From: Clostridia bacterium
GTDB taxonomy: Bacteria; Bacillota; Clostridia; Oscillospirales; CAG-272
Length of the DNA: 64,000 nucleotides
Direction: 5' to 3'
NCBI GenBank assembly: GCA_017412045.1
Contig: JAFQOX010000041.1
Location: 10,689 to 74,688 of the forward strand
Below are positions 8,650 through 50,107 of the stretch, piece after piece; positions within the stretch are counted from its first letter, which is position 1; every line of letters starts with the position of its first letter. Under the pieces are notes generated by a model. It did not search any database. It was given only the letters and a program-made list of their open reading frames with translations, and was not told the origin of the DNA. Made by a program: the position numbers and the translations under genes.

Positions 8650-8764
8650 CAAAAAAGCGGGCAACGCCCGCAGGAAGTTTCTCGCCTACCGCAGTTTAGC
8701 CTGTATTCAAACAATACAAAACGGCGAGGTCGAATTTGCGCAATTTCCTATGGTACAAAAAAGC
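8650..8764 (-). repeat. Dispersed structured repeat family A, copy 1
   Basis: Plus strand AAAAAAGCGGGCAACGCCCGC...CTCGCC...GGCGAG...TTTGCGCAATTTCCTATGG, flanked by CAAAAAAGC direct repeats. Confidence 0.9.
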
Positions 8765-8794
8765 CTGCGCCGTATGCGCGGTGGTTCTGTTTTT

Positions 8795-8823
8795 ATTATA
8801 CAGTATATAGAAAAAATTGTCAA
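8795..8823 (-). promoter_or_regulatory. Sigma-A promoter of the lipoprotein gene
   Basis: TTGACA-17-TATAAT on the minus strand. Confidence 0.8.
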
Positions 8824-8908
8824 TTATTTTTGAAAAAAATGTAATAGAAGGGAATTTTTACCAAATCAAAATTCGGAAAACCGAAGATCGGTTTTCCGAA
8901 CAAAAAAA

Positions 8909-10198
8909 TCAGACCGTTTTTTCGTAAAGCCGATGAATGAGCAATGTCAGATACCGCTCGTCAAAGCCCACCGTAACGCCCATGCGGTCAGCGCCGCCGT
9001 CCACGAGAAGCGGCTCCGCGCCGATCTCCGCCATCGTTTGCAGAATCATGCGCGCCGTTTCGGAGGAAAGCCCCTCTCCCACGACGGAGAGCAGAGCCAT
9101 ATCCGCTGTGACCGTCACCGCTTCCGCAGAAAGCTTCTCAAAAAGATCCCGCAGAATATCCTCTTTTCTGCCGCCGATATCGTCGCCGTACACGAGAACG
9201 CCGACCGCATCGATCGTATGCGGCGTAGAATATACGTTCGAGGTATAGGCCTCGAAAATGCCGAGCAGGCGGTGAAAATCCGCCAGATTTTTTCCGATTC
9301 CCGTCAGATAGACAGAAAAAAGCAGATACCCCCGCTGTCCGACGATGCCGCTGACGGCGCGTTCCGTTTTTTTCGCGCAAATGCGGGTATATTCGCCGTC
9401 GGGATCGTTGGTGTTGCGGATCAGGACGGGAATCTCCTTCGCCTTCAGAGGCAGAACGGAATCGGAATGCAGAACGCAAGCGCCCATCGAGGAGAGCCGA
9501 CGCAATTCCTCGTAAGAAAGCTCCCTCACGGTTCTCGGTGATGCCACCGTTTTGGGATCTGCCAGAAGAAAGCCGTTCACGTCCGTAAAATTCTCATATA
9601 CGTCCGCATCGGCTGCCGCCGCCGCGATCGCGCCCGTGATATCCGAGCCTCCGCGCGGAAGGAGAACGGTCTCGCCGTTTGGCCCCGCGCCGTAAAAGCC
9701 CGGAATCACGATATTTCCGTACTGCTCCAAATGCGCGCGCATTGCTTTCTCGATTTTCGGCATATCGGGTTCTCCCTTTTCATCCAGAAAAATCACGTCG
9801 CGGGCGTCCGCGAAGGAAAATCCGATCAGGGCGGCAAAGATTTTCGCACAGAAGTATTCTCCTCTGCTGACCAGCTCCGCCCCGCGCGCCGTCATCAGTA
9901 CCTCCCGATACTCCCGCGAAAAGTCCTGCGGAAGCCCGAGAGAAGCGACGATGTCGTCCAATCTTCCCGTGATCAAAGAAAAAAGCTCATTTCGTTTTTC
10001 CGTCGTTTTCGCCTGATCCATCCGATACAGCAAATCCGTTATTTTGTCATCCCCCGAAAAACGTTTACCCGGCGCAGATACCGCGACGACACGCCTCTCT
10101 TTATCCGATCGAACGATTTCCGCGGCTTTTCTCATCTGCTCCGCGTGGCTGAGCGAGGTGCCGCCGAATTTCACGGCTTTGATCCCCACAGAAATCAC
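8909..10198 (-). CDS. lysC: Aspartate kinase
   Basis: KFGGTSL, VSAPGK, RGGSDITG, TDVNG motifs and a C-terminal ACT-like region. Confidence 0.85.
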   Translation of the reverse strand: MISVGIKAVKFGGTSLSHAEQMRKAAEIVRSDKERRVVAVSAPGKRFSGDDKITDLLYRMDQAKTTEKRNELFSLITGRLDDIVASLGLPQDFSREYREVLMTARGAELVSRGEYFCAKIFAALIGFSFADARDVIFLDEKGEPDMPKIEKAMRAHLEQYGNIVIPGFYGAGPNGETVLLPRGGSDITGAIAAAAADADVYENFTDVNGFLLADPKTVASPRTVRELSYEELRRLSSMGACVLHSDSVLPLKAKEIPVLIRNTNDPDGEYTRICAKKTERAVSGIVGQRGYLLFSVYLTGIGKNLADFHRLLGIFEAYTSNVYSTPHTIDAVGVLVYGDDIGGRKEDILRDLFEKLSAEAVTVTADMALLSVVGEGLSSETARMILQTMAEIGAEPLLVDGGADRMGVTVGFDERYLTLLIHRLYEKTV

Positions 10199-47674: not shown

Positions 47675-47703
47675 TCGCTTATATTTCCGGGGAAATCAAA
47701 ATC

Positions 47704-49488
47704 ATGAAAAAATTCATTCAAAAATTAATAGCGGCATATCAGATCATGAAACTTATTTATCGTTATGAACCGTTATATTTTTGGGTTGTTATACCCAATA
47801 TTTTATTGAATCCCGTTTTCCAAGCACTTGGCGTATATATGCCCAAACATATCATAGAATGTTTGACCGAGGAAACCACTTATAAAAGAATAGTAACTGC
47901 AATCCTTATTTATGCAATTCTTCTGCTGTTTTTTCATTTGATTTTTCAATTTTTGAATGGAAAACAGGCTGTTTACGAAGATCGGTTTGCAAGAAAAATA
48001 CGTTTTGAAATAGGGAAAATATCGATGCATCTATCTTATTCAGACGTAGAATCTCCTGCACATCGAGAAATCATTTTACTTGCCGGCAAGGCAACCGAAC
48101 TCACAAAAACATTTTCCATCGTTCAGAGAATTGTTTCTCAAATCATAACCATTGTAGGATTTGCGGCAGTTATTGCAAATCTTGATGGAACCATTTTCGC
48201 CGCAATTCTTTTTGTCAGTGCCCTAAAAGTGCTATTTTCGTGCCTGCGATATTCCCGAAATAAAAAAGTCCGACTGCTTTATGCTCAAAATGATCGCGAA
48301 GGAAACTACTTATCCCGTGTTGCTTATTTTGATGTGGGAGGTCAAAAAGAAATTCGCGTAAATAGTCTTGAAAATTGGTTTATTACGAAAAACAATCAAT
48401 ACCGAGAAAAGATGTTAACGTTTCAATATAAAGATTTTCGATATTCTGCTTTATTTGATATTTTGATGGCGATTGCCCTTGCACTCCAAACTTTGCTTGT
48501 TTTAGGATTGCTTACACAAAAATACTTGATATCCGAAATCTCGATTGCAGATTTTACAATGTATTTTTCTGCCTCGACCACACTTGTTTCCGCGTTCACA
48601 ATTCTTGCCGATGCGATGGAATTGTATCATCAGCAAGTGTTGAATCTTGGAGATTTTCAGAAGTTACTATACTTGAACACAATAACACCTTGTGAGCATT
48701 GTTGCGTAGATGCGGATTTTGAAACTGAAAATAATATTACTATTTGTTTTGAAGATGTATCATTTGCTTACCCCAATGCAAAGGTAAATACGTTGAATCA
48801 TGTCAATCTTCGGATTGACGCAAGGGAAAAGCTCGTTATCGTTGGCAAAAACGGTGCAGGGAAAACGACGCTTATCAAACTTTTATGCAAATTTTATAAA
48901 CCAACAGCGGGAAAAATTACGATGGGCGGCGAAGATATTTGGCAAATTTCTAATGAAAAGTATTATAAGCTGATAGCGACTGTTTTTCAGGATTTTCAAA
49001 ATTTCGCTTTCTCTCTCTCGGAAGCAATCGCTCTCCGAGATGATACGGAGCGAGCGAAAATAGAAAACATTGTTTATGATGTTGGATTGAAAAATTTATT
49101 GGATTCATCTTCCGATGGTACAAATACTTATATTACAAAAAATTTTTCAAAGAATGGAATAGAACCATCGGGAGGAGAATCGCAGAAAATTGCAATCGCA
49201 AGAGCAATTTATAAAAATGGACCGATTCTCATTCTTGACGAGCCGACAGCGAGCCTCGACGCAAAAGCAGAAGCTGAAATATATCACAATTTTTTTCAAA
49301 TGTCGGGGAATAAAACGACCGTTTTTGTCAGCCACCGACTTGCGGCATCCACAATAGCAGATCATATTGCCGTTTTTGTTGACGGTACGATTGCCGAATA
49401 TGGAAACCACCATACGTTAATGCAGAAAAACGGCATATATGCAGAAATGTATCGAAAGCAAAGCGAAGGATATACAGCTAATTCATAA
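47704..49488 (+). CDS. ABC exporter, fused permease/ATPase
   Basis: GKNGAGKTT, PSGGESQK and ILDEPT. Confidence 0.93.
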   Translation: MKKFIQKLIAAYQIMKLIYRYEPLYFWVVIPNILLNPVFQALGVYMPKHIIECLTEETTYKRIVTAILIYAILLLFFHLIFQFLNGKQAVYEDRFARKIRFEIGKISMHLSYSDVESPAHREIILLAGKATELTKTFSIVQRIVSQIITIVGFAAVIANLDGTIFAAILFVSALKVLFSCLRYSRNKKVRLLYAQNDREGNYLSRVAYFDVGGQKEIRVNSLENWFITKNNQYREKMLTFQYKDFRYSALFDILMAIALALQTLLVLGLLTQKYLISEISIADFTMYFSASTTLVSAFTILADAMELYHQQVLNLGDFQKLLYLNTITPCEHCCVDADFETENNITICFEDVSFAYPNAKVNTLNHVNLRIDAREKLVIVGKNGAGKTTLIKLLCKFYKPTAGKITMGGEDIWQISNEKYYKLIATVFQDFQNFAFSLSEAIALRDDTERAKIENIVYDVGLKNLLDSSSDGTNTYITKNFSKNGIEPSGGESQKIAIARAIYKNGPILILDEPTASLDAKAEAEIYHNFFQMSGNKTTVFVSHRLAASTIADHIAVFVDGTIAEYGNHHTLMQKNGIYAEMYRKQSEGYTANS

Positions 49489-49952
49489 TTATAAAACGGG
49501 AAATTGCATAATACAGCGAAAAAATCAATAGAGAATCTCATCTGTAATCCGCCGAGAGCACTTGACCATAACGGTCGATTACTCTCGGCGGTAAACTTTT
49601 ATATACACATATTTGAATGATCGGCAGGCATGATCTTTTGATGTAATCTGTTCATAATGTTATTTGATATTTTTGGCAATTTTGAAAATTCGGTGTTATA
49701 TAAAGTACGGGGATAAAGTTACGTAGCAAGCATAGGAAGTGGGTACCCACTTCCGTGTTTTCGCCCTTACCACGCTCGCGCTTCGGTTGAAAACAGCTTG
49801 TTGGGAAACGTCCCAAACTGCGTTTATTTTCCTTTCTATGTTTTAAAGGTGACTGCAAAAATATCGTTTTTTGAGGTGTTGTCCCCACCTCTTTTTGTCA
49901 CGCTTTCTTTTTGCTTTCTCATTATATCACATCTTTTTTCGCTTTGCAACTC

Positions 49953-50107
49953 TTTGCGTAATTTCCTATGGAATAAAAAAGCGGGCAACGCCCGCTGGAA
50001 AACTGCTTGCTCTGCAAGCTGTGTGCTCGCCTATCGCAGTTAAGACTGTATCCAAACGATATAAACGGCGAGGTTCTATTTGCGCAATTTCCTATGGTAT
50101 AAAAAAG
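49953..50107 (-). repeat. Repeat family A: 29-bp end fragment abutting a full long-variant copy 7
   Basis: Full core 49975-50097, with ATAAAAAAG at both ends, next to the terminator of the SGNH gene. Confidence 0.9.

Follow-up and report, generated by a model that had tools for sequence, protein, structure and literature searches.

Group IIC introns, ribozymes at least several hundred bases long that come with a reverse transcriptase (RT), home behind the stem-loops of intrinsic terminators in a single orientation. The bcr1-type repeats of the Bacillus cereus group are structured Firmicute elements of ~150 bp with a reported T-rich flanking direct repeat (TTTAT). In pneumococcus, SPRITE is described as a family of 30 AT-rich copies (28% GC) with one 18-bp duplex and AAAA/TTTT ends, for which a duplication is not established in the portion of the account considered here (PMC3049150). 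A recent survey, in the part drawn on here, reports terminator-like sequences just upstream of insertion sequences (ISs), most strongly for IS200/IS605 (PMC13548323). Here we describe a dispersed, structured repeat found in a 64-kb stretch of a Clostridia genome (the window, C32:10689-74688 of host genome G000; 2,574,987 bp in 158 contigs, 87.7% complete, 50.9% G+C). The repeat is probably a non-autonomous mobile element that homes, in a single orientation, to the T-run and following purine, T(n)R, of terminators, with the T-run and purine duplicated and the mover not found. A literature search, supplements aside, returned no description of this repeat family.

The unit is non-coding and comprises ~100 bp plus flanking T-runs, about 115–140 bases in total, with a G+C content of 45–47%. 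Read in the T-tail sense, the direction in which the unit ends in a hairpin and T-run, it begins directly behind a T-run and purine and consists of (i) the sequence T-x-x-CATAGGAAATTGCGCAAA, (ii) a closed stem around a variable hairpin and (iii) a GC hairpin followed by T5-6 and that purine again. With a profile of five window copies, the genome gives 143 matches at E<1e-10, far beyond chance, of which 131 are near full length, spread over 73 contigs, with 25 at most 300 bp from a contig end. After one profile iteration the number of matches in G000 is 189, and at ~190 copies of ~115 bp the repeat occupies ~0.8% of the 2.6-Mb genome. The 181 distinct full-length sequences form 82 clusters at 88% identity. 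The largest have 24, 24, 22, 14, 10 and 6 near-identical members and the remainder are small, mostly singletons, the age profile of a family spreading in bursts. The copies, many of them near-identical, have a fixed orientation relative to the T-run, a preference for T-runs preceded by a hairpin and a matched base after the T-run.

At the junctions, all but a few of the 110 copies that could be parsed have a T-run and purine on the left, and a hairpin, T-run and purine on the right. Among 91 copies, 82 have the same purine on the left as on the right (Fisher 1.7e-14), and among non-tandem copies the two match in 55 of 63. Agreement is seen in each subfamily (A1 25/28, A2 16/17, A3 7/7, A4 10/12 and B 13/13), and both A and G occur as the junction purine in every one. 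The identity ends at the purine, with 24 matches of two or more bases observed and 24.7 expected. Rare variants of the T-run are repeated on both sides as well, TTTCTT at two loci and TTTATTC at one. A cytosine follows the left T-run in 1 of 106 junctions, compared with 336 of 872 free T-runs that are preceded by a hairpin. Within the window, matched junctions are present in 6/6 well-preserved copies. A T-run and purine on both sides is the kind of target-site duplication associated with classical MITEs, although its exact length is left open by the data.

The sequences flanking the repeat point to terminators as the preferred target. In 61% of 89 non-tandem copies, the 30-nt segment preceding the left T-run has a folding energy of -8 kcal/mol or below, a cut-off reached by 13% of 1436 other intergenic T6-8R sites and by 8% of 300 genic ones. 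Head-to-tail arrays, in which a copy is placed behind the hairpin of another copy, account for 23 of 112 copies, as would follow from targeting of the element's own terminator. The terminal hairpins at window positions 8671-8657, 10318-10302 and 15659-15643 scored as terminator-like in a pattern scan. Gene context was assigned with a crude gene caller of our own for 166 near-full copies. For the 118 with two called neighbors, the flanking genes are convergent in 40 cases, tandem in 29 + 36 (co- and anti-oriented) and divergent in 13, and 105 copies touch at least one gene 3' end. Because copies are found in both orientations relative to genes, the polarity is fixed with respect to the T-run and not with respect to the genes. 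The T-run need not belong to a terminator, as illustrated by the copy at 39444, which lies 27 nt upstream of a start codon.

Further support for insertion at a T-run comes from a cross-species comparison. A relative (L113, 2327-2441) carries a copy within the amino-acid kinase orthologue of window gene 8909-10198 (54% protein identity). This copy lies antisense to the gene, in frame, and leaves it open, giving 469 residues vs 429 in the G000 orthologue. At the equivalent position in G000 (window 9310-9400) there is a single T7 run on that strand, so that a filled site in the relative stands opposite a single T-run in the host.

The fold of the repeat appears to be under selection, as the preliminary description of this DNA had proposed. 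Covariation was evaluated in an alignment made with the covariance model, comprising 84 copies, 82 of them distinct, taken from G000 and from loci in eight further genomes of its genus. Paired cells amount to 88.6%, compared with 81.0% after shuffling. Changes on both sides of a pair are seen in 19 of 26 pairs and 123 cells, where shuffles give 11.0 pairs and 35.5 cells; 0/500 shuffles reach the observed values, and a control in which the pairing partners are slid gives 15–36 such cells. Three helices covary, with such pairs in hairpin 1 (7/7), the terminal hairpin (6/6) and the closing stem P1 (4/6). The compensatory stem changes claimed earlier are real for the terminal hairpin (GCGGGC/GCCCGC vs GCGGCG/CGCCGC) and for hairpin 1 (TGTATT/AATACA, TTGCAT/ATGCAA and CCGTGC/GCACGG). 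A structure-blind RNAalifold prediction on a MAFFT alignment of 20 copies recovers P1 and the terminal hairpin only. The second internal hairpin has 55.6% of its cells paired, on 12 seeds only, and a proposed outer stem P0 (GGAA.TTGC with GCAA.TTCC, joining the 5' motif to the segment before the terminal hairpin) was set aside, being 80–91% paired with essentially no covariation. The suggestion that the A-tract strand pairs better did not survive three tests, none of which gave an asymmetry. The minimum free energy favors the A-sense in 50 of the 82 cluster representatives and the T-sense in the other 32 (p=0.29); near-pairs in hairpin 1 are 26 G-T vs 28 A-C; and wobbles on the model alignment number 134 in the T-sense and 108 in the A-sense.

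Several observations weigh against the mobile element reading. No strong hairpin precedes the T-run in 39% of non-tandem left flanks, and 15 of the 166 near-full copies lie inside called genes. Where the left T-run is six, the right one is six in 53 of 59 copies, and where the left is seven, in 19 of 22; opposite a left run of five it is five or six. Since it is mostly six whatever the left length, no single fixed stagger fits. The junction purine is also partly linked to subfamily (chi-square p=0.003), where a pure target duplication predicts no linkage, and this hints at a homology-dependent step. Because covariation was counted on a model-fitted alignment of mutually related copies, the counts given above lean toward structure. 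No empty/filled allele pair was obtained within one species, and we infer the unit borders and the duplication length. Contigs from four animal-gut sequencing runs that cover window 30201-50200 break at the repeats, with no joint that removes a copy. When the same-species locus was sought in metagenome contigs, the best relative of the neighboring gene was just 41% identical, and genome contigs gave 57–64%. Finally, no transposase, recombinase or reverse transcriptase tracks the repeat across the genus.

A covariance model was built on 12 copies and searched against the window, giving nine matches with fragments included: full copies at 8650, 10296, 15637, 39444 and 49974; old or diverged copies at 29913 and 24680; a 3'-truncated copy at 41521-41641; and a terminal hairpin only at 47643. 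Two more pieces, a 5' fragment at 659 and a 3' part at 5362, came from a profile search. All seven copies of the preliminary list are present among the covariance-model matches, in the orientations given there and at approximately the same places, and the two that it described as sharing an optional hairpin (10293 and 49975 in its numbering) do contain the same 21-nt insert. The copies and fragments are as follows.

659-702 (-): 5' fragment (T-run, TATAGGAAATTACGAAAAATCAACCTTGCCG); profile search, 15.9 bits.
5362-5450 (+): 3' part of a diverged copy, from the P1 stem through the terminal hairpin, in or at the end of gene 5419-6189; profile search, 32.4 bits.
8650-8765 (-): full copy, subfamily A2; covariance model, 123.6 bits (bit scores from here on are from this model). 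Left junction ...GGCTTTTTTG / TACCATAGG, right junction GCCCGCTTTTTTG / AAAAAAC; T6G on both sides. A consensus promoter (8823-8795) lies on one side and the start of gene 6328-8592 on the other.
10296-10431 (-): full copy with the optional 21-nt hairpin (GCTTGCAGAGCAAGC), 86.4 bits; behind the terminator of gene 10471-11700 and ahead of gene 8909-10198; left T6G, right T5G.
15637-15751 (-): full copy, A1 body with B-type terminal hairpin GCGGCGATTCGCCGC, 114.7 bits; between convergent genes 14751-15617(+) and 15806-17005(-), behind the terminator of 15806-17005; T5G on both sides.
24680-24788 (-): diverged family-B-like copy with stem CGCCG.../...CGGCGG and hairpin GCGGCGGTTCGCCGC, 38.1 bits; between genes 23115-24704 and 24807-25826.
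29913-30037 (+): an old copy that has diverged and has another optional hairpin (ACCGAA...TTCGGT), 46.4 bits; between convergent genes 28566-29864(+) and 30033-30911(-).
39444-39558 (+): full copy, young subfamily A1, 125 bits; T6A on both sides. Its left T-run, not a terminator, is the A-rich stretch found 27 nt ahead of the start codon of the serine recombinase gene 37940-39421(-).
41571-41645 (-) (covariance match 41521-41641): 3'-truncated copy, 38.2 bits; it retains the T-run and 5' motif, the first P1 arm and hairpin 1, after which the sequence is unrelated, so that the 5' half alone is similar.
47643-47705 (-): fragment comprising the pre-hairpin segment and terminal hairpin GCGGGCGTTGCCCGC, 29.8 bits; at the junction or overlap of open reading frames (ORFs) 45878-47674 and 47671-49488, the latter with an ABC ATPase domain.
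49950-49981 (-): 5' fragment of another copy, head-to-tail with copy 49974.
49974-50109 (-): full A1 copy with the optional hairpin, 87.6 bits; T6A on both sides.

The surroundings of these copies contain other features. The promoter upstream of copy 8650 is a perfect TTGACA-17-TATAAT (window 8795-8823(-)) and is followed by a short hairpin and T-run, the copy itself and the start of gene 6328-8592; expression of that gene from this promoter would require read-through of two terminator-like sites. The serine recombinase next to copy 39444 is large, with Resolvase, Recombinase and zinc ribbon domains. ORFs at ~41.3–50.1 kb (MutS-like protein and ABC ATPases) were rejected by a codon-usage gene caller and may mark foreign DNA. 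Gut-1 RNA has three matches above the gathering score (16972-17055(-), 54162-54234(+) and 54336-54408(+)), of which the last two lie inside a 174-nt tandem duplication (54163-54510) beside tRNA genes at 51971 and 54038. Upstream of ORF 18907-20772 is a T-box leader (20642-20893(-), 110.8 bits).

Beyond the window, the repeat can be divided into bodies and exchangeable parts. Lengths are bimodal, at ~113–120 and ~135–145, because the optional hairpin is present or absent. The same optional hairpin module is found in A1, A2, A3 and A4 bodies, and B-type terminal hairpins are found on A bodies, indicating that modules are exchanged between copies. Sister family B, with at least 14 near-identical copies, has in common with family A the 5' motif (TATAGGAAATTGCGTAAAA), the closed-stem layout and the GCGGCGATTCGCCGC hairpin with its T-run; the closed stem itself is CTCGCC/GGCGAG in family A and CCGCCG/CGGCGG in family B.

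Two other non-coding repeats of G000, both outside the window, touch on this family. Family X (~400 bp) has terminal inverted repeats (CAGACTGTCGAAAAAG... / ...CTTTATCGACAAGCTG) and is detected by BLAST as 98 segments over 80 contigs, 57 of which touch a contig end; examples are at C68:12800-13260, C26:8830-9300, C140:22675-23150 and C82:3700-4160, and at many contig ends. A whole terminator hairpin (21–38 bp) is present on both sides of four internal copies of family X, as if the palindrome were the target duplication, and family X also lies within the terminal hairpin of five family-A copies. Part of it resembles the sequence directly after an IS110-family gene in a relative (L118). Family C occurs at 28 places in a long form of ~480 bp and a short form of ~150 bp, without ORFs (for example C66:8500-9030, C107:8600-9110 and C132:3300-3480). 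One of its ends is a B-like stem and GCGGCGATTCGCCGC followed by TAAATTTCCGTTTATC, and on the other strand the end resembles the A/B 5' motif, often behind a T-run. The repeat, together with the other families, helps to explain why metagenome-assembled genomes (MAGs) of this group are assembled in many contigs.

Of 15 other species in the genus, 9 have the repeat, several of them with dozens of matches at 75–86% identity. It was detected in 0/15 genomes of other genera within the same sample and in 0/150 other genomes drawn across the order, just one of which belongs to the genus. There was no exact match to an 18-nt motif in viral contigs and no BLAST match in plasmids or phages. One species (G007) has A1 copies that are 98–99% identical to those of G000 in unrelated flanks, and the single gene compared between the two is 70% identical. 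Near-identical copies in unrelated flanks of a second species suggest recent transfer of this subfamily between species of gut bacteria. The runs that contain DNA of this window are animal-gut metagenomes, and its nearest named relatives come from the gut of goat and roe deer, as MAGs of Clostridia and Oscillospiraceae. G007 further has, at L002:1394-1615, a diverged copy with an A1 copy of 99% identity behind it in tandem.

Candidates for the mover were considered across the genus. The preliminary description had suggested looking for longer copies that enclose a mobility gene; none was found, the flanks of the 21 5'-only copies share no longer element, and comparing the genome with itself by BLAST gives no multi-copy coding repeat >1 kb. 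The serine recombinase beside the copy numbered 39446 in that description was rejected as a driver, with homologues in 15 of 16 genomes and no repeat near the closest orthologues. A DEDD recombinase does not accompany the element as in the bridge/seek-RNA systems of IS110/IS1111. Weak PF01548 matches in 9/10 element-bearing and 0/6 element-free genomes proved a false lead, a BcrAD/DUF2229 CoA-enzyme activase of ~1440 aa, and true PF01548 (IS110 DEDD recombinase) genes are confined to G008, G004, G003 and G010, three element-bearing genomes and one element-free. TnpB has no match above the cut-off, and the Y2_Tnp profile is silent in every genome, controls included, and hence uninformative. Because MAGs lose multi-copy transposase genes, the absence of a driver is weak evidence. 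An A1 copy of the repeat lies right behind the terminator that follows a 6-repeat CRISPR array in G000, at a locus (C132:10922-14000) that also encodes an RT-Cas1 fusion of 634 aa; a second CRISPR array, with 41 repeats, is at C101:110723-113404.

How might such an element move? According to the mobile element reading, insertion would occur exactly after the T(n)R of a terminator and would duplicate ~6–7 bp (the T-run and R). Each insertion would keep the host terminator intact and add a second terminator-like hairpin behind it, making the site harmless and at the same time creating a new target. The conserved stems may constitute a shape that is recognized by a trans-acting enzyme, on either DNA or RNA. 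The lack of terminal inverted repeats, the strict polarity and the matched T-run and purine together argue against an ordinary DDE cut-and-paste transposase. The two ends of the unit, T-x-x-CATAGGAAATTGCGC... and ...GCGGGCGTTGCCCGC, do not mirror one another as inverted repeats would, which agrees with the earlier view that this is not a classical MITE. That view had also recognized no riboswitch or repetitive extragenic palindrome (REP), and Rfam yields no match to the repeat at gathering thresholds in the whole window, or at E up to 10 for the copy at L001; no window copy scores at or near the gathering threshold of any family. With no Rfam family, no inverted ends and no autonomous long copy, the repeat is not a classical MITE, riboswitch or REP. 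A bolder version of the mechanism, which we consider unlikely as it stands, is that no ordinary transposase is needed: the element's own terminator would serve as the homing device, its T/U-tail pairing with the A-run opposite the T-run of another terminator, and the element would be copied in by reverse transcription or template switching. If this were so, the repeat would be a bacterial counterpart of a short interspersed element (SINE), living on transcription terminators.

Alternative explanations account for parts of these data. The repeat could be a PATE-like, non-autonomous derivative of the IS200/IS605 type that a Y1 HUH transposase mobilizes in the form of single-stranded DNA; the target would then be the left T-run and R, and the right ones would be where the element itself is cleaved, so that nothing is truly duplicated. 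The missing terminal inverted repeats, strict polarity and conserved hairpins all suit such an element, and upstream terminator-like sequences are most typical of IS200/IS605 in the part of the survey considered (PMC13548323). In a relative (L033), a copy abuts the right end of an IS200-like element, but the ends of that element share no sequence with the repeat. We regard this origin as quite improbable in view of the distribution of Y1_Tnp (PF01797), whose presence in the genus does not follow the repeat: there are no matches in G000 (at its 87.7% completeness) or in 6 of the 9 other element-bearing species, leaving G015, G005 (weak) and G012 (weak), yet the domain is found in the element-free G010 and G002. 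A single-stranded DNA route is further weakened by the lack of strand bias, judged by the crude proxies of gene-majority strand (52 of 91 copies, p=0.21) and G-rich strand (54 of 99, p=0.42). It also does not fit well with a purine that varies within subfamilies yet matches left and right, or with duplication of the rare T-run variants. A SINE-like retroposon, in which a transcript stops at the terminator of the element itself and its U-tail pairs with the A-run opposite a terminator T-run and a nick primes reverse transcription, would explain the polarity, the terminator-type 3' end, the T-run target and a short duplication that starts from the T-run, and copy-choice would give the shuffling of modules between subfamilies. 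This seems very unlikely to us. The sole RVT_1 match in G000, the RT-Cas1 fusion beside the CRISPR array, was rejected as a driver, and RT matches occur in 4/10 element-bearing and 2/6 element-free genomes. Nor is there an RT partner with 5'-truncated copies in G000: 21 fragments retain the 5' end alone and 11 the 3' end alone, and the absence of a 5'-truncation bias weakens the retroposon reading. A reading of the sequence reveals no conserved internal promoter.

Two further explanations dispense with an enzyme or with mobility. Template switching or recombination at microhomologies of hairpin and T-run, during replication or repair, could spread the repeat without any driver, and none has been found. 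Hairpins with T-runs are present at both donor borders and targets, tandem arrays, mosaics and 3'-truncated copies occur, and the purines match left and right while being partly heritable. We think it highly improbable that this suffices, however, because it leaves unexplained the conserved 5' motif and covarying internal stems, the scale of the near-identical bursts and the 98–99% identical copies in another species, and because a missing transposase means little in MAGs, which often lose such multi-copy genes. Covarying stems and a 3' terminator would also be expected of non-mobile functional RNAs or cis-regulatory leaders (attenuators or small RNAs) kept by selection, and copy 8650 does lie between a perfect promoter and a gene start. 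This is hardly credible for the family as a whole: ~190 copies in near-identical bursts flank genes of unrelated function, in both orientations relative to them, and the head-to-tail arrays, the in-frame copy in a gene of a relative and the lack of an Rfam match are not readily accommodated.

A mobile element that homes to terminator T(n)R thus remains our preferred reading. The preliminary description overlooked the genus-wide scale of ~190 copies, the tandem arrays, the constant T-run and purine at either end and the terminator-like character of the left flanks, and these make mobility and target choice the main story. Most small dispersed repeats have neither a known target nor a known mover, and this family offers a clear and testable insertion rule. 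For the host, the repeat adds terminator-like hairpins behind, and sometimes ahead of, many genes.

The comparison with known systems can now be made in terms of structure and target. Like the classical MITEs (RUP, Correia and BOX), the repeat is small, numerous, intergenic and non-coding, with burst-like subfamilies and a short flanking duplication, but it has no terminal inverted repeats, is strictly polar to its target and has no parent IS with matching ends that we could find. With IS200/IS605 PATEs and with REP/REPIN-RAYT systems it has in common the absence of inverted ends, hairpin-based ends and polar insertion beside a short target. It differs in that Y1 or RAYT genes are absent from G000 and from most element-bearing relatives, the junction purine resembles a duplication and there is no strand bias; moreover, it is a 115-bp composite and not a 20–40-bp palindrome. 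Homing behind terminator stem-loops in one orientation recalls the group IIC introns, but at ~115 nt the repeat is much shorter, and Rfam and Pfam searches give no intron or RT signal. The likeness to bcr1 is one of general description, and the host group is different.

In the portion of its account considered here, SPRITE appears to be the nearest described thing to this repeat. Both are small interspersed repeats with a terminator-like hairpin and T/U tract, enriched between convergent genes and near gene 3' ends, and in both the mover is unknown and the range is limited to close relatives. Compared by description with that same portion of the account, the repeat described here is distinguished by its ~190 copies, a G+C content of 45–47%, a multi-stem fold, a conserved 5' motif, a matched T-run and purine at its junctions and its tandem arrays.

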